Source: a virus
Virus record (IMG/VR): IMGVR_UViG_3300050821_009430
Span: 14,458-78,457 of that record
Direction: 5' to 3' (one strand)
DNA: 64,000 bases
Position numbers and translations under genes: made by a program. The notes beneath the pieces are model-generated. The model was not told where the DNA came from. It worked only from the letters and a program-made list of their open reading frames with translations, and made no database searches. Positions 50,909-62,162 of the stretch are shown here, in pieces. Each line of letters starts with the position of its first letter. Position 1 is the stretch's first letter.

Positions 50909-51711
50909 GCGCCGGCCAAACGAACGTGGTGACGATGTGCATAGTGGATACGCTGACGCGGCTCTTCACGCTCTTTCGTTGCGATGTAAATGACCGGCGG
51001 CAATGGTGAAACTCGCGTTGGCGTGATCGCGGCCCCGTTCGGCCCAATGTGCAGGAACGCTTGCCCAGCTTCCTCAATCATCGCCAAAACTTGGCGTTTG
51101 AACTCAGCCCATCGGCTACGGTCGATTACAACACAGCCGGCGCTCGCCATGTGCGAAGCCGGGTGAAGCTCGATGCCCTCACGGTCACGGCCAAGCTGCG
51201 GATCGTAGATTGAATCGTTGTTCAGCCCTATCGCCCCATGGCGGCTTCCCCATGAGCCTACTGCTTCCGGTGTGATCTTGACCGTGCCGAGTGGGATCGA
51301 CCAGCCATGGCCCCCGCTGGCAAACTCATAGGTGCTATCGCCAATAGTCAAAGGGCCTTCCAGGCGCTTAGGGCGTCCCTGTATGACCTTGGGGAGTGGA
51401 GCTGATAAGCCGTCCTCCCAGCCCTCAGGAATGCCCAGAATGGCTCCCAAGGCTACCATAGCAGCGTCTACAGGGGCTTGGATAAGCGACGGCGCGGTAT
51501 AGTAGATTTCTGGCCTAGCGCGCCTTGGGGCTTCGTGACGGGCTTCCCTATGCCTACGGGCATGCCAGATTGCCTTTACTGGGGTATCTATGGCGTATGA
51601 GGGGGTAGCCGCCACATCAATACACACCGTCTGTGCCTCAATCGGGTGCCGGGAAGCAAAAGCCGGCGTTACTAGAAACAATGCAAGGGCAGCCGAAATA
51701 AAATAATTCAA
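50905..51711 (-). CDS. secreted Tlde1/DUF2778-like L,D-transpeptidase-fold protein
   Basis: Signal peptide (TPAFA); YEFASGG...SIPLGT, R.GIELHP.....SAGCV (His/Cys catalytic motif). Confidence 0.7.
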   Translation of the reverse strand: MNYFISAALALFLVTPAFASRHPIEAQTVCIDVAATPSYAIDTPVKAIWHARRHREARHEAPRRARPEIYYTAPSLIQAPVDAAMVALGAILGIPEGWEDGLSAPLPKVIQGRPKRLEGPLTIGDSTYEFASGGHGWSIPLGTVKITPEAVGSWGSRHGAIGLNNDSIYDPQLGRDREGIELHPASHMASAGCVVIDRSRWAEFKRQVLAMIEEAGQAFLHIGPNGAAITPTRVSPLPPVIYIATKEREEPRQRIHYAHRHHVRLAGA

Positions 51712-52679: not shown

Positions 52680-53084
52680 TCAACCCCGATGGATTAGAAC
52701 CGACGCAATGAGCATGGCCGTGCCGAGCGCACCAACAATATAGGCCCCTACAGTTCCCCAATTGCGCCCGGACAACTCCGATACCGTATCCTTTAGATCG
52801 GTTATCTTGGTATCGAGGTTTTCAATCTGCTTTGCGAACGACGCTTCCATTTTGTCATTTGCAAGCGTATTGCTATCGTTCTGCTGTTTCACCAACTCTT
52901 GAGCCGCCTTGAGCGCAGCAGCAAGCGCCGTATCGCGACCAGCAAATTTTTCAATAACCAATTCCCGAAAGCCGTTTAGCTTTACGTCGAAAATCTCTTT
53001 CAGTTCGGTCTTTGCAAGAGCAACCGCATCCGTCGTCAGCTTTGTCGGATCAGGTACGGGGACGGACCCGGTATTCTGCTCCAT
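52680..53084 (-). CDS. coiled-coil protein with C-terminal TM helix (lysis accessory)
   Basis: ALAAALKAA..LVKQQN...K.E....KQI...DLKD.V; terminal hydrophobic helix. Confidence 0.65.
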   Translation of the reverse strand: MEQNTGSVPVPDPTKLTTDAVALAKTELKEIFDVKLNGFRELVIEKFAGRDTALAAALKAAQELVKQQNDSNTLANDKMEASFAKQIENLDTKITDLKDTVSELSGRNWGTVGAYIVGALGTAMLIASVLIHRG

Positions 53085-53099
53085 CGGGATAGCCTGCCG

Positions 53100-55601: not shown

Positions 55602-56990
55602 TCATCGCGCGATTCTGGATAGCGCGATTATGCCCGTTGTAGCCAAATACTCATCCGCCGCCAAGGTTGGATGAATTGCACCGAATGGACTGCTTCCCGT
55701 CAAAGCTACCCAATAAGGCGTCGTGCTGCAACATTGTGCTGAAAATGTCGCGCCGTCTTTCCAAACGATATTTCCTGACGACAAGGTACTTAACTGTGCC
55801 TCGATATCGAAGTAACTTCCGTTCGGTCCATTGGAGGACTGGCGAAGCCATGTATTAAAAGCAACGCGTTGCGCTTCGGTCGAGAGAACGGACTGACCGC
55901 CTGGGGTCGCCACCTGCGTTGCTGTTACTTGCGGCGTGAGGGTCGTGTGAAATATAGGTCCGTTGAAACCAATTGTGCCGCTGATTGGCACGCCACCTAA
56001 TGAACTGGCCTGCTGACCATACCAAATTTGTAGTTCATACGATTCTAGATTCGTTGCGCTCTGCCCATTTATGATATCGTTAGTTCCGTAGTTGTCGCCC
56101 ATGTGCGAGCAATATTTGTAGAGTGACTGCCGCACGGTGCTGTTCGAGACATAACGGCCATTCACCAAGTTGAAGTTGACATATTGACCAGCCTGAGTGC
56201 CTCCTATGCCCATCATAATATAGCCGTACTTTGGCCCGATGGTCATAGCCATCACGCCCATGTCGCCTACGGTATTTTGCCCGGCAAGAAAACCTTGTTG
56301 AATGCTATCGCCGATCAGACAGGCCGATGGCGCGGTAGTGTTTGCGACGATTGCCGCCGACGTTAGGATGCCCAAACTTCCTTGTCCGTGATTGCCTGTA
56401 ATCGCATCGCATGATGTTGTTTGGTCTGGCGTACCGACCCCAGCATCAAATTGATCACCAATTGCAGTATTTGTGCCGCCCGCTCCCGTTGCCCCGGCCG
56501 TGAACACATTGACCGACGTTGAATTGCCAGCAGCGCTAAAACTGTAGATGCGTTCGAAGAATTTCGTATTGGCCGGAATGCTGACACTGATCGGATCGGA
56601 AATTGGGTAGAGTGCATTCGAGGTAGTTACCGTAGACTGACCGCCCCACGTTACCTGCGTGCAAGTGCCGACTGGATATTCGATGCTGGCACGCGCCGAA
56701 TGGGACGTAAACACTCCTATAGTGCCATCGGCACTGCCTTCGTTATTGTTGAGTGTGATATTGAAGTTCTGCATAACAATTTGGAAACTAGTCTGGCTGG
56801 CCGGGAAAAAATGCGCCGCTCTGCTCATAACTGTTGCAGATGCGCCAGCGTCGTTTATTATTGAGCGGGTGGCGACCTGACCGAGATAGGTTGTGCCGCC
56901 GGGAAGGTTACCACAGCAGCCGATAGTCTGGGCATGAGCTAATTGGCTCAGCCCAATAAATGCGACGAATAAAATTAATAAGCGGCGCAT
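55602..56990 (-). CDS. SGNH/GDSL esterase with N-terminal signal peptide
   Basis: Block I IGDSI, II GIGG, III YGTND, V IHP; signal peptide LAHA-Q. Confidence 0.8.
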   Translation of the reverse strand: MRRLLILFVAFIGLSQLAHAQTIGCCGNLPGGTTYLGQVATRSIINDAGASATVMSRAAHFFPASQTSFQIVMQNFNITLNNNEGSADGTIGVFTSHSARASIEYPVGTCTQVTWGGQSTVTTSNALYPISDPISVSIPANTKFFERIYSFSAAGNSTSVNVFTAGATGAGGTNTAIGDQFDAGVGTPDQTTSCDAITGNHGQGSLGILTSAAIVANTTAPSACLIGDSIQQGFLAGQNTVGDMGVMAMTIGPKYGYIMMGIGGTQAGQYVNFNLVNGRYVSNSTVRQSLYKYCSHMGDNYGTNDIINGQSATNLESYELQIWYGQQASSLGGVPISGTIGFNGPIFHTTLTPQVTATQVATPGGQSVLSTEAQRVAFNTWLRQSSNGPNGSYFDIEAQLSTLSSGNIVWKDGATFSAQCCSTTPYWVALTGSSPFGAIHPTLAADEYLATTGIIALSRIAR

Positions 56991-59005
56991 GAGAACTGCA
57001 CTACGTCATTATTAGCCATTGTCCCACTCAGTGTGGCCGTCGTAGTGGTGGTCGCGGTCTGACTAATGATATCAGTTGGCGTTGTTTGATCGTTTGTGAA
57101 GCATGCCCATCCGTTAGGAGCGGTAAAGGCAAAAGTGAGGATGACAGTTCCGGCAACACAGGCACCGCTCGCAGTGAATTTTCCAGAGGTATTGCCACCC
57201 ACTTGAGTTGTAATTGAACATGAGCCTGAGCCAGTTGGAGCCGAACCGCCGTACACGACACTGCGTAACTTTGCTTCGCGGAAGGTACCGTGCGTTCCAT
57301 TGTCGATCTCGACCACACCGGCAGCGTTTCTGTAGAACGCCGTATCACAGGCTCCTGTCGCATCGGCGCTGCCAGACCAACAAAATTCAGCGGTATTGCC
57401 TATAGAGGTAAATAAAGTTCCTACATCCAACAGGCCAATCGAATTGGTCATAAATACCTGAAAGGCGCCGGGTGTATTAGCATAAAGGTTGGAGCCATCC
57501 TCTTCAAAGGCATAATTCGTAGAACTCGGAGTTGCAGAGCCTAGCCACATTGCCGGGAGTGATTGCGATATGCCAAGTGCGAACTGCGTCGTTCCTCCCA
57601 ATTGAATATCGACGTATTTGCTTAGCGTATGGCTGGCCGTGTTCGTTATGTTCATGAACCATGGCGCGTCGAAGGTTGTGCCTGACGCATTCCATGTTGC
57701 GGTCGTATTGAGCGCCTTGAGATTTGTCGTGATCGTGCCGAGCGCGAGCAGCAATTGCCCTGTGCCGGGCGTCGTGATGCCTGCGGAGGCTTGAGCTAGC
57801 GATCCATCGGAATAGACAAACTGCCCGGCGGTGAAACCGCTTGTCGCCGTGCTATTGGCCGTCAAGGTGCCGGAAGCGGCTGTGGCCCAGCTAGGCAGAC
57901 CACTTGCCACAGTTAGAACTTGCCCGGTACTGCCAATACCGAGGCGAGTTAGGACCGCGCCGCCGCTTCGATAATAAATGTCGCCAGTAGCATCTGAGCC
58001 AAGCGTTGTCGTTACTTGGCCCAGAACATCGGAAGTAGCCGCAAGTGTCTTGTTCGTCAGCGTGTCGGTTGTGGCGCGGCCAAGGATTGTGTCGGACGAT
58101 CCCTGGAACGTATAAGTGAATGACGATGCCGGGAAAGCAAGTGTCGGAGCACCCGCCCCGGTTGTCGTTAGCGAGGCCGCAACGGTGATCGTGCTCGATC
58201 CGTTATTGATGCCAGTCCCACCGCTCGCACCGGCCAGTGGCAACGAGGCAAGTTGAGACGTGACCGCAACGGTGCCTGCGGTTCCAATAGCCAAGCCGCT
58301 ATCAGCCGCCTGATTTGACGAATTGCTGGAAATAAGATCGCCAACAGTAAAGCCGACCGTTGGCGTCACCGCTGCGATGATGCCAGCACTTGCACTACCG
58401 TTCGTTCGCCACAACGAATTAGTGCTATCGTACTGCAACGCCTGACTTGCGCCGGGTGTCAGATAGACGTTCTGGCCGAGGGAGAACTGATTTGCTGCGC
58501 TCGATGAGCCGGAAAGATTCGCGAGAATAATATTGTTGGTCGTGCCGTTATTGACCAGCACGACGATGCGGCCCGCAAGTCCGCCTGTCAGGCCGGTGAT
58601 GGTGCGATCCGCCGCGCCGCCGCTAATATAGACCGTGCTCGCCGTGCTATACGTTCCGGTGCCGGATGGCGTCCAATTGTTTTGATTGGCCGAGATTGTC
58701 GTAAATACATTCCCGGCAATCGAAAACGGGCCGGCAATATCGGGAAAGCCGGGCTGCGATTGCGTGAAAAGGCCGGTGCCGGCCGTGTACGAATCGAGCC
58801 ATTGATGCGTGACTTTGGCTATCGTCTGAGGGATAGTAAAATTTGAAAGGGGGATGGCCTTAGGAAAACCACCCGCAACACTCCCACAAACTGTATTTGC
58901 CGGAAACACCCCGCTGCAATTTGCTTGAGCAAAAGCAGCACTCGGCAAAAGTGCAAACAGCCATATGATTAGAAAGAGTTTAATCTTATTGTACAAGCCA
59001 GCCAC
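56975..59005 (-). CDS. tail-fibre/adhesin-like Thr/Gly/Ser-rich protein with signal peptide
   Basis: TDTLTNKTL and GDIYY...LTRLGIGSTGQVLTVASGLPSW fibre repeats; signal peptide AAFA-Q. Confidence 0.7.
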   Translation of the reverse strand: MAGLYNKIKLFLIIWLFALLPSAAFAQANCSGVFPANTVCGSVAGGFPKAIPLSNFTIPQTIAKVTHQWLDSYTAGTGLFTQSQPGFPDIAGPFSIAGNVFTTISANQNNWTPSGTGTYSTASTVYISGGAADRTITGLTGGLAGRIVVLVNNGTTNNIILANLSGSSSAANQFSLGQNVYLTPGASQALQYDSTNSLWRTNGSASAGIIAAVTPTVGFTVGDLISSNSSNQAADSGLAIGTAGTVAVTSQLASLPLAGASGGTGINNGSSTITVAASLTTTGAGAPTLAFPASSFTYTFQGSSDTILGRATTDTLTNKTLAATSDVLGQVTTTLGSDATGDIYYRSGGAVLTRLGIGSTGQVLTVASGLPSWATAASGTLTANSTATSGFTAGQFVYSDGSLAQASAGITTPGTGQLLLALGTITTNLKALNTTATWNASGTTFDAPWFMNITNTASHTLSKYVDIQLGGTTQFALGISQSLPAMWLGSATPSSTNYAFEEDGSNLYANTPGAFQVFMTNSIGLLDVGTLFTSIGNTAEFCWSGSADATGACDTAFYRNAAGVVEIDNGTHGTFREAKLRSVVYGGSAPTGSGSCSITTQVGGNTSGKFTASGACVAGTVILTFAFTAPNGWACFTNDQTTPTDIISQTATTTTTATLSGTMANNDVVQFSCAAY

Positions 59006-59426
59006 CTGTTGAAAGTGGAAGAAGAGTGATTGACTGATAATCCTGAGTTAGCACCGGGTTGGCTGATTGTCCATCAATCTTCTCACTGCCATTGGGCGTC
59101 AAAGTAGCATTTGTAGTGCTGAAAATGCCCGAAGCATTGCCTATGATTGTGACCGGGTTTGTCTTGGTAGCGCTGGGGGGCAGGTAAATATTTGGTACGG
59201 CCGCTTCTATGTAGATGAGACGATCACTGACACCAACATTGATTGTACCGGCCGAATTCACAATACGTGGATTGTAAACAATTTGTTGCTGCCCAAGCTG
59301 AGTAAGGGCGTTTGAAATATCGGTAAAAATAGAATTCCATGTAGCCGACGCAATGATTTCGCCGGGGAAAGCATTTTCAGCGCCATTCGGTGGAGTGTAC
59401 ACCCCTGAACTTGGATTGAAAGGGAT
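58986..59426 (-). CDS. tail protein, proposed ATC start
   Basis: AGGAGG-N5-ATC CCT TTC AAT; PFNPSSGVYTPP...ISNALT anchor domain; TP.GSEKIDG C-terminal motif. Confidence 0.7.
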   Translation of the reverse strand: MPFNPSSGVYTPPNGAENAFPGEIIASATWNSIFTDISNALTQLGQQQIVYNPRIVNSAGTINVGVSDRLIYIEAAVPNIYLPPSATKTNPVTIIGNASGIFSTTNATLTPNGSEKIDGQSANPVLTQDYQSITLLPLSTGGWLVQ

Positions 59427-59437
59427 ATCAGCCTCCT

Positions 59438-60358
59438 CTATGGCCTTCCGGCGAAGATGATCTTGTTGAACATGATCACGGGGGGCATTGTTGTAAGCGC
59501 TGTGCCGCTACCACCTAATGGCACCGTGCCGCTGATGGTCGTCGTAGTGGTGACAACAATTGCTTGGAAGTTTGCATTAATGGAACCGGCACCGGCACTT
59601 GCTGTTGCTAAAGCCGTGCCACCATTTATGCCACCTGATACAACCGATACTGACGCAGCGGCTAAGCCAGCCGAACTTAGATTCACGCTTGGGAGATTTG
59701 CCTGAGCAATGATTTGATTTTGAGCGCCGCCTGTGGCCCCAAGAGTGGTACCGGCTATACCCGAACCGGCTGAAGTAATACGGTTGGCAGCGGTACCCCC
59801 CATATTATCCACACCTGCCGAAATTCTACCCCGGCAATCGGGCAAGTTGAATGTGGTGCTGCCATCACCAATCCCATAAGTAGTGCCAATAGTATTAAAG
59901 AGTTCAGGATAATTAGTTCTTGATATGGCTTGCCCAAAACACAAATACCAACCGGCCGGGGCTGTGCCGCCGGCAAAATCAGTGACCATTCCTACCGGGT
60001 TGAGGAACGCACCGTTCGTATAATAAAGTTGATTACCACTTTTCCCGGTGCCTACTTGAGTGCTGTCAAGAAATACACCACCTGTGCCCGCCCCTGCACT
60101 GAGGCCCAATACCCCAGGGGAACTAAGATAAAGCCCTGTAGTGGCATCCCCAATAAACGTCACACCGGGCAAGCTTGCCGAACCGGCAAAGAACTTTAAG
60201 GGACCAATAATGGGTGTACTGCCATTAGCGGCAAGGGAGCCGGTCAGGGCGGTAGCAATATCGGCAAGATCAGAATTGACGGCAGCAGAAGAAATAACCG
60301 ACCCAGGCGTAAACGGTGCCTGTGGAAGCGTGTACGTTCCTGACGAATTTCGAGGTAT
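59438..60358 (-). CDS. tail-collar-domain fibre protein, proposed ATA start
   Basis: AGGAGG-N5-ATA CCT CGA AAT; collar motif PVG....FAG..AP.GW..C.GQAISRT.YPELF..IGTTYG.GDGSTTFNLPD.RGR. Confidence 0.85.
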   Translation of the reverse strand: MPRNSSGTYTLPQAPFTPGSVISSAAVNSDLADIATALTGSLAANGSTPIIGPLKFFAGSASLPGVTFIGDATTGLYLSSPGVLGLSAGAGTGGVFLDSTQVGTGKSGNQLYYTNGAFLNPVGMVTDFAGGTAPAGWYLCFGQAISRTNYPELFNTIGTTYGIGDGSTTFNLPDCRGRISAGVDNMGGTAANRITSAGSGIAGTTLGATGGAQNQIIAQANLPSVNLSSAGLAAASVSVVSGGINGGTALATASAGAGSINANFQAIVVTTTTTISGTVPLGGSGTALTTMPPVIMFNKIIFAGRP

Positions 60359-60389
60359 CTTAACCTCCTGCCGTTAAAGGAGCTTTATT

Positions 60390-60608
60390 ATGCTTTGGTA
60401 CTTCCTGCAAATCGTTGTCATCGTATGGCTCGTCCACCTTTACACAACACAATTAGCCCCGCATCAACCATTAGGTGACATAGTAATCTTTGCATCCCTG
60501 GTTGCCTATGCCCTGACTTTTATAATTTCCTTCACCATGGATTGCCTATTGGCCCTGTTGTGGCTGATTAAGCGCAGCCTGAGCCGCATCGGGGGCACGC
60601 ATAGATAA
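60390..60608 (+). CDS. small two-TM membrane protein, antisense within the late operon
   Basis: SD AAAGGAG; two hydrophobic helices. Confidence 0.6.
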   Translation: MLWYFLQIVVIVWLVHLYTTQLAPHQPLGDIVIFASLVAYALTFIISFTMDCLLALLWLIKRSLSRIGGTHR

Positions 60609-62162
60609 CAGTCTGATTGCAGAAGCAGGATCAAGTGAGGTAGCCGGTGATGGCAGCCACATTTGATTTTGAGCATAGGCTTGGGCCGGGGCGCTCTTTG
60701 CAATCGCATTGATGCCCTTACCGATCATTTTCAATGGTGTATCGATATAATAAGGGGCCAAAGCACCAAGGACCCCAGCTTCAAGATTATGTGCATACAG
60801 GCCACCGGCCGCACCGGCAGTTGCCGCCGCTGGGGGCAACCACGACATGGAATAGGGTTGGGGCCGTGTGCCAAGGATGCCTTGCCCGGCTTCGGCCAAC
60901 TGCTTGACGGGGGTATTCTTCATCATGGCACCCACCACCGGGCCAGGGCTGAGCGGCCCCGTAGTCCCTTTTCCGCCGGCTGCTTCGCTTGCCGCTTTCA
61001 AGCCCTGAAAGTCAGCCCAATCGCCCCGCCACTTCTGCCATGCCCCATTATAGGCACTTCCATTATTGGAACTATCTATGGCACTATCAAGCTGACTGCC
61101 CATATTACGCAATTCGGGCACGCCTGAGTTCTTCCAGCTATCGCTAAGGGCGTGATACTGCTTCCCGCTCAATTGGCCAGTAGACGATAATGTACTGAAA
61201 TCGGTAAGTGCCTTCTCAACATCTGGATTTTCAAGCGACGTGCCGCCATAGGCAAGCCTGTGCTGGCCTACAATATTGGCCAACCCATGTTGCAACCCTG
61301 GCGTCACCTGAAGATCAGTATTTTGTTCGAGATTTTGCACGGCACTAGATAACTGATTGCCACGCGCCGCGATCAAATCACTGGTAGGCAATGCCGAACC
61401 AGGTGGCCGTGTCACACCACCTTTGGACATCATGGCGTCACTGAGAGCCCCGCTTTGGCCCCCTGGTGGGGCACCTTCCAAAGTAGAGGCCAAACGGCTA
61501 CCGGAACGATCCGCCGCTGAAATTGGCACCCCATTAGACGCCAAAAGGTCAGCCATGCGGTTACGCTCAGGTAAAGCAGCAAATGGGGTGACAGCGGAAC
61601 GCACGCCGGCGGGCGCGCTATGGGCCGCCACTGCCCCAGCTATCCGGGCATAAGGTTCCAGTGAGGAGCCTTGCGTTCCTTCCCCGGCTGCTTCAGATCC
61701 TTGTGAGGCCAGCATACCCTTGGCCATAGAAGGTAAAAACTTCTCAGCCATCGCCGCCGAACCGGCTACGCTTGGTGCCCACTCCAAACCACTTTGTACA
61801 TATTTGCCCGGCGTGGTTTGGGCCTGATAAGCAGTGGATGGAAAATGTGATTCTATGGAAGGCATTACCCCTTCATAAGTGTATGGCTCAACCCCTTCAT
61901 GCAGTTGAGAAGCCACCCCACCCACTCTATTGCCGGGGCCGGCCAAATAATTGGAACCGGCCACTAAGCCACGTAAAGCAAGATCAGCCACGGTAGGTAC
62001 CGTTGTGACAGCTTGGGCTATGCCACGGGTTGCAGCGGCCGGTGCTACTTTCTTGATGTCTTCGGCAACGCTTGGCTTTTCAGCGCCTTTGGCAGCGCCC
62101 TGCTTCTGCGCAATCAGCGCATCGAGCTGCTCGTCGGTAAGATCAACAATCGGCTGAGCCAT
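60546..62162 (-). CDS. internal virion (DNA ejection) protein
   Basis: LTDEQLDAL N-terminus, YQAQTTPGKY, Gly/Ala-rich; position typical of podoviral ejection genes. Confidence 0.65.
   Translation of the reverse strand: MAQPIVDLTDEQLDALIAQKQGAAKGAEKPSVAEDIKKVAPAAATRGIAQAVTTVPTVADLALRGLVAGSNYLAGPGNRVGGVASQLHEGVEPYTYEGVMPSIESHFPSTAYQAQTTPGKYVQSGLEWAPSVAGSAAMAEKFLPSMAKGMLASQGSEAAGEGTQGSSLEPYARIAGAVAAHSAPAGVRSAVTPFAALPERNRMADLLASNGVPISAADRSGSRLASTLEGAPPGGQSGALSDAMMSKGGVTRPPGSALPTSDLIAARGNQLSSAVQNLEQNTDLQVTPGLQHGLANIVGQHRLAYGGTSLENPDVEKALTDFSTLSSTGQLSGKQYHALSDSWKNSGVPELRNMGSQLDSAIDSSNNGSAYNGAWQKWRGDWADFQGLKAASEAAGGKGTTGPLSPGPVVGAMMKNTPVKQLAEAGQGILGTRPQPYSMSWLPPAAATAGAAGGLYAHNLEAGVLGALAPYYIDTPLKMIGKGINAIAKSAPAQAYAQNQMWLPSPATSLDPASAIRLLSMRAPDAAQAALNQPQQGQ

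Follow-up and report, generated by a model that had tools for sequence, protein, structure and literature searches.

Two consecutive genes of the tail-fibre type in a phage genome appear to begin at isoleucine codons, ATA and ATC, where their relatives carry methionine, and the comparison with homologues strongly supports this placement for both genes. Alignment of related loci shows that putative Ile-codon starts recur within the fibre protein family, and that they go together with strong Shine-Dalgarno (SD) sites. We consider it very probable that both are intact tail-fibre genes whose translation starts at a near-cognate Ile codon behind a strong SD, with fMet supplied by the initiator tRNA. 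The window, that is, the whole 64,000-nucleotide stretch of DNA that was analysed and in whose coordinates positions are given, comprises bases 14458-78457 of the 78,457-bp IMG/VR record IMGVR_UViG_3300050821_009430. This record is linear, 84% complete and of soil metagenome origin, and both genes lie within its minus-strand late-gene block.

Gene 1 (59438..60358, minus strand) translates into a tail-fibre protein of 306 aa when it is read from the ATA at 60358 to the TAG at 59440-59438. The proposed start codon (60356..60358) aligns with the start Met of the homologues and is preceded, at a distance of 5 nt (spacer ttaag), by a perfect AGGAGG (60364..60369). The frame is closed by a TAA (60374..60376) six codons before the ATA, with zero ATG, GTG or TTG codons in between, and downstream there is none until a TTG (60170..60172), which lies 62 codons past the ATA and lacks an SD. 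Our reading of the minus strand agrees with an earlier note, made from the letters of the sequence, which had claimed this same combination of AGGAGG, ATA and upstream TAA with no canonical start for 62 codons. The conserved N-terminal module of the protein reads xPRNSSGTYTLPQ, a Phage Tail Collar domain (PF07484) occupies residues 123-179 (E 5e-23; 81.2 bits vs a cut-off of 24), the C-terminal end (...IIFAGRP) is shared by the homologues, and the PHROG matches are to tail and tail-fibre families. None of the neighbours of gene 1 was assigned to a tail family. The public call of this gene (P0047) has 241 aa starting from GTG 60163, and 65 residues are missing from it.

Gene 2 (58986..59426, minus strand) encodes a fibre-like protein of 146 aa, translated from the ATC at 59426 to the TAA at 58988-58986. 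Its proposed start codon (59424..59426) lies 12 nt past the gene 1 stop, and its AGGAGG (59432..59437) abuts the gene 1 TAG and is separated from the ATC by the 5-nt spacer ctgat; this second perfect SD was also found on the minus strand as claimed. In the frame of gene 2 the closest upstream stop is at 59510, with the ATA at 59441 alone in between, and the frame is open for 28 codons upstream of the ATC, where it overlaps the end of gene 1. An alternative canonical start, the GTG at 59400..59402, is found 8 codons past the ATC behind a weak SD (-3.2 kcal/mol). Read from their Ile codons, the extended N-terminal peptides of genes 1 and 2 are (M)PRNSSGTYTLPQ... and (M)PFNPSSGVYTPP..., and the paralogy that had been proposed for them is borne out by an alignment of 42 residues at 50% identity (tblastn E about 1e-3, in a small database). 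Gene 2 consists of an N-terminal module as in gene 1 and a short C-terminal part, which has a weak match to PHROG 31104, a family of unknown function. Its sole close homologue (L082, 70% identity) has ATG at the window's ATC codon and GTT at the window's GTG 59402, keeps residues 2-8 via synonymous changes and is preceded by a gene unrelated to gene 1. The start region of gene 2 (59426-59437, AGGAGGCTGATATC) is almost the same as that of a gene 1 homologue from another lineage (L091:1487-1503, AGGAGGCTGATATT). From this likeness, duplication or exchange of the N-terminal module may have carried along its ribosome-binding site and its Ile-codon start.

A protein search with residues 1-110 of gene 1 returned 80 relatives, most of which begin MPRN(G/S)SGTY.LPQ, their Met falling where the window has Ile. 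A minority are truncated calls, beginning for instance MYTLPE..., MISSAAV..., VYSLPQ... or MPQAPF...; such late starts in the database fall at residue 8, 11, 17-18 or 21 (truncated proteins P0005, P0009, P0057, P0060, P0061, P0063 and P0064/65). Two relatives have a short extension ahead of the aligned position, at which they carry Ile (LGWEAVIPRNG and MGDAIPRNG). We also surveyed viral contigs and genomes independently of gene calls, using tblastn and alignment of the N-terminal module, with viral-scan patterns that excluded residue 1. In this alignment of start codons across homologues, which the earlier note had suggested as a check, the codon at the position of the window's ATA is ATG at 61 of 81 loci, ATT at 12, TTG at 6 and GTG at 2. 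The 12 loci with an Ile codon represent 7 of 66 distinct sequences, or 8 of 67 counting the window. ATA itself occurs at the aligned position in the window only, while its relatives have ATT or ATC there, and a recoded genetic code in which ATA stands for Met is ruled out by those same ATT and ATC codons. Both window ORFs align residue for residue from position 2 with families that have Met at position 1, and a canonical start cannot account for the conserved N-terminus in either: gene 1 has none that is usable, and the GTG of gene 2, at +8, is unconserved.

The lineages with ATT include one (L089) on the same 76-kb contig as the gene 2 homologue L082, with the arrangement AGGAGG-ctagt-ATT and, for L089/L082, 80% N-terminal identity. 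Another (L091) has AGGAGG-ctgat-ATT, and a third (L092-96) is one virus whose start region is identical in five metagenome assemblies. Further ATT lineages are L105, L133, L157/160 and L169. The last of these (CAVXCB010000015.1), the only match in a species-representative genome collection, occupies one end of a 29.7-kb contig assigned to a Planctomycetaceae MAG, which may point towards a host for the phage group. A scan of metagenomes yielded about a dozen extra ATT and ATC lineages; one of its search patterns had I as the first residue, which skews the proportions towards Ile. At most Ile-start loci an in-frame stop is found 4-7 codons upstream with zero canonical starts between, and the next canonical codon downstream is 101 codons away in one case (L181) and 168 in another (L171). 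In-frame ATG, GTG or TTG codons are present 4-10 codons upstream of the Ile in L105, L185, L189 and L191 and in the proteins P0053 and P0058, and in these lineages the Ile may be internal.

The family tree was built from 100 alignment columns, and its resolution is poor. For the viral loci, the best tree has 6 changes to or from an Ile-codon start, of which at least 2 are forced by well-supported branches; adding the metagenome loci gives 17 changes and 7 contrasts that are independent and supported. The distribution of codons on the tree shows several apparently independent switches of the start codon, in a direction that the tree does not give.

The strength of the SD was assessed as the energy of the SD/anti-SD duplex, computed for the 20 nt that precede each start. 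Within the family the mean energy is -10.2 kcal/mol for Ile-codon starts (n=9 distinct) vs -6.7 kcal/mol for ATG (n=56; Mann-Whitney p = 6e-6). The values for genes 1 and 2 are -11.0 and -12.0 kcal/mol. The phage genome as a whole has a mean of -5.2 kcal/mol, only 3% of its genes reach -10 kcal/mol, and the SDs of genes 1 and 2 rank among the strongest 3% of its sites. In a paired test on a tree of 84 distinct sequences, with a strong SD defined as -8.5 kcal/mol or lower, 7 independent pairs could be drawn on well-supported branches; a strong SD went with the Ile codon in 5.8 of these, the opposite was seen in 0.2 and a tie in 1.0 (median sign-test p 0.03, a significance that is lost at stricter thresholds). 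Two matched pairs illustrate the pattern. In the first, two relatives with identical first 20 residues differ in having ATT behind TAGGAGG (L172) vs ATG behind a degenerate TAGGGCC (L173); in the second, gene 2 of the window has AGGAGG-N5-ATC vs GAGGA-N8-ATG in its L082 orthologue. Together the comparisons show that the putative Ile-codon starts of this family go together with strong SD sites. The hexamer AGGAGG has 22 copies on both strands of the 78-kb genome, five of which are found 5 nt before a long ORF, and two of these five belong to genes 1 and 2. This scarcity, like the residue-by-residue alignment of both ORFs with Met-started families, speaks against coincidence. The codons that follow the five sites are ATA, ATC, TTG, GTG (with ATG one codon on) and ATG. 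The other perfect AGGAGG-N5 sites are at 51711 (minus strand) and, upstream of the window, at window coordinates -6763 and -12004; these sites tend towards weak start codons (TTG at 51711 and GTG at -12004).

Unusual initiation is confined to these two genes as far as a scan of about 100 ORFs can tell, in which no other coding-looking stretch was found ahead of a first canonical start. Genome-wide relaxed initiation was rejected on this basis: the other long pre-start stretches are Arg-rich and non-coding-looking, and lack the combination of an SD with an ATH codon. A late switch that relaxes IF3 proofreading, which the earlier note had raised, finds no support, with 2 of about 100 genes involved and neither an IF3-like gene nor a tRNA in the record. 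The idea is made less likely, no IF3_C match and no tRNA gene having been found in a record that is 84% complete. Feedback by the gene product of the infC type is likewise not indicated, as the products are tail fibres and there is no IF3_C match in the record. The note had also listed a weaker case at 53090 (ATC CCG ATG, 53082..53090, minus strand). Here the ATC is superfluous, since an ordinary ATG start is present at 53084, two codons past it, and the sole SD-like stretch, GGCAGG, lies 8 nt from the ATG vs 2 nt from the ATC.

Upstream of gene 1 a small divergent ORF of 72 aa (60390..60608, plus strand; MLWYFLQ...) was recognised from an alignment of seven orthologues and from a weak match to PHROG 2203, 'membrane protein'. 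Two hydrophobic stretches in its translation suggest two putative membrane-spanning segments. Orthologues (MWY[IL]LQ...) are found in the same place in six relatives. The ATG of this ORF is 31 nt from the gene 1 ATA, and in some relatives the start codon of the small gene directly adjoins the SD of the fibre gene (CAT-AGGAGG). Due to this divergent arrangement of starts, the 5' ends of both mRNAs would be mutually antisense across both ribosome-binding sites. The possibility that the ribosome-binding site of the small gene constrains the start codon of the fibre gene was rejected, as the spacing is unfit and a relative that starts with ATG (L173) is arranged alike. At its 3' end the small ORF has a 63-nt overlap with a convergent ORF of 538 aa (60546-62162). 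On the other side, downstream of gene 2, the ORF at 56975-59005 (minus strand) encodes an N-terminus that resembles a signal peptide (KIKLFLIIWLFALLPSAAFAQA). The most likely start of this ORF is the TTG at 58996, which has AGGTGG at 5 nt; with this start the ORF overlaps the gene 2 stop, and neither Pfam nor PHROG gave a match for it.

If the Ile codons were not used, translation could begin from the canonical codons that follow (TTG 60172 or GTG 60163 in gene 1, GTG 59402 in gene 2), and the similarity upstream of them would be an untranslated remnant. We regard this as improbable, even though the public call of the record does use GTG 60163 (P0047) and gene 2 would lose 8 residues only. The cost to gene 1 would be 62-65 residues from the best-conserved module of the family. 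Over codons 2-55 of this gene, dN against six relatives is 0.18-0.34, with dS of at least 1.1 and saturated, and dN/dS is 0.11-0.30 where computable. The stretch that a canonical start would forfeit is by these values under purifying selection, which indicates that the region is translated. The SD is absent or weak at the alternative codons, GTG 59402 corresponds to GTT in the orthologue, and in relatives the next canonical codon can lie as far downstream as in L171. The starts at TTG 60172 and GTG 59402, which the earlier note had named as the outcome that would speak against its reading, fail on their poor SDs and, for the latter, on the GTT of the closest homologue. A sequencing or assembly error, or a recent inactivation, in a single metagenome-derived genome is still less probable. 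The depth of the window is admittedly low (4.5-7x), and the sole public run that contains the stretch, a DNA run with no RNA counterpart among the runs listed, is probably the source sample, in which the Logan contigs equal the window and are not independent of it. Nevertheless, two hits would be needed, each on a start codon, in frames that are both intact and of full length, and the Ile-start state is seen in many independent assemblies of related viruses. The two genes could also be reached from upstream ORFs, gene 1 by read-through of TAA 60376 from an ATG at 60421, with which it has a 15-codon ORF in frame, and gene 2 by a -1 frameshift from gene 1, whose end is overlapped by the open frame of gene 2. 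This we find hardly credible. The short upstream ORF is unconserved (L004 lacks the ATG and contains a further stop) and the stretch is antisense to a conserved gene; for the frameshift, an X XXY YYZ slippery site is absent from the end of gene 1, the C-terminus ...IIFAGRP is common to gene 1 and its homologues, and the gene 2 orthologue, which follows an unrelated gene, carries an ATG of its own.

A different alternative accepts the ATA and ATC starts as real and denies them a regulatory purpose. Since few fibres are needed, a change from ATG to ATH would be nearly neutral wherever a strong SD was present or soon evolved. The frequent switches of the start (6 changes among viral loci, 17 with metagenome loci), the presence of all three Ile codons in the family, the ATG of the gene 2 orthologue and the gain of upstream canonical starts in some lineages are all in keeping with such decay, and we consider it a genuine possibility, though somewhat unlikely. 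Ile starts account for about 12% of the distinct sequences (7/66, or 8/67 with the window), vs less than 0.1% for codons other than ATG, GTG and TTG in annotated bacterial genes, and the Ile state is kept over lineages with just 45-80% N-terminal identity. Five separate assemblies of one virus (L092-96) agree on its ATT start, and the steady pairing with a near-perfect SD suggests co-adaptation rather than transient damage. Alternatively, the Ile starts may have been selected, the weak start and strong SD together serving as a readout of the host translation state (the IF3-to-ribosome ratio, ppGpp or temperature) that would tune the number or choice of fibres. This remains a speculation, and on balance a rather unlikely one. 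If it is true, selected Ile starts would gate which fibre of a pair with a common attachment module reaches the virion, and such translational control would recur in many soil and freshwater phage lineages.

Initiator tRNA reads AUU, AUC and AUA in the P site, and IF3 discriminates against these codons. In our preferred reading, that of intact fibre genes with near-cognate starts, the AUA of gene 1 and the AUC of gene 2 would be decoded by the initiator tRNA, and the first residue would presumably be fMet. The perfect AGGAGG 5 nt upstream would hold the 30S subunit and make the weak codon usable. Output would be expected to fall several-fold to about 100-fold below that of AUG and to respond to the IF3 level and growth state. 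In E. coli reporters AUA, AUC and AUU gave 1-2% of AUG, with N-terminal Met (10.1101/063800), and in a phage hydrolase construct near-cognate codons yielded 5-7.5% (PMC5499595). Nutrient limitation and ppGpp were also found to affect non-AUG starts more strongly (PMC5499595). In S. aureus, conserved AUU and AUA starts with an extended SD reached about 10-30% of AUG (PMC13009471). Gene 2 could gain extra initiation from ribosomes terminating at the gene 1 stop, 12 nt upstream. In infC a coupled AUU was twice as good as an uncoupled AUU (PMC3592434), a precedent that is relevant to gene 2 because its ATC follows the gene 1 stop at that short distance. From these precedents we infer that fibre output is reduced. 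A low output would suit proteins with few copies per virion, and the reduction may have been selected for and not merely tolerated. Control of stoichiometry, which the earlier note had offered as one explanation, is plausible and fits the pairing of a strong SD with a weak start codon.

About one in eight distinct members of this widespread fibre family appears to be Ile-started, and their conserved N-termini are clipped by gene finders because these are limited to ATG, GTG and TTG. The clipped module probably attaches the fibre to the virion, and its loss is detrimental to the building of families, to structure prediction and to work on host range. The family also offers a natural series of matched pairs, ATG with ATH and weak with strong SD, in which the trade-off between start codon and SD can be studied. 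Our results raise the idea that phages may dose low-copy virion parts via the choice of start codon.

Among cultured phages the family defined by 'MPRNGSGTY' includes Stenotrophomonas phage BUCT555 (hypothetical protein QQM14856.1), Myxococcus phage Mx8 (p64) and Mx9 (putative tail fiber), which share the module, and the Collar domain of gene 1 is also present in many of its members. BUCT555 has ATG at the codon aligned to the window's ATA. In Mx8 p64 (L198, NC_003085.1 36781-37854) the module (RNSVGTYTLPGGNPV...) follows a 29-residue hydrophobic leader that starts from an upstream ATG, so that the protein's N-terminus is built differently. An Ile-codon start was not seen in any cultured member, the starts that were read in BUCT555 and Mx8 being ATG, and our literature search returned no report of ATT/AUU or otherwise unusual starts in phage tail-fibre genes. 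The closest known systems are cellular. As in E. coli infC (encoding IF3) and pcnB, whose AUU starts limit translation, an SD-led Ile-codon start would be used by the initiator tRNA; the output of infC and pcnB is reduced and IF3-sensitive, which for the window genes is an expectation. Unlike infC and pcnB, which are cellular regulatory genes, the window genes are phage structural genes, and the fibre family shows repeated switching of its start, which is ATG in some relatives and ATH in others. Furthermore, infC has a feedback loop via its own product, whereas no feedback partner is known for the window genes. The fibre genes also resemble cvfC1 (AUU), ccpN (AUA), infC (AUA) and citZ (AUA) of S. 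aureus, in which conserved AUU or AUA starts are combined with an unusually strong and well-spaced SD and reporters give about 10% of AUG, medium-dependent in one case (PMC13009471). The S. aureus starts were established by ribosome profiling and reporters (PMC13009471), whereas those of the window come from comparative sequence analysis of an uncultured phage. The principle is thus already known from infC, pcnB, cvfC1 and ccpN, and it is the setting in phage tail fibres that appears to be new. What seems distinctive here is the recurrence of Ile-codon starts over many lineages of one structural-protein family, together with a paired shift in SD strength.
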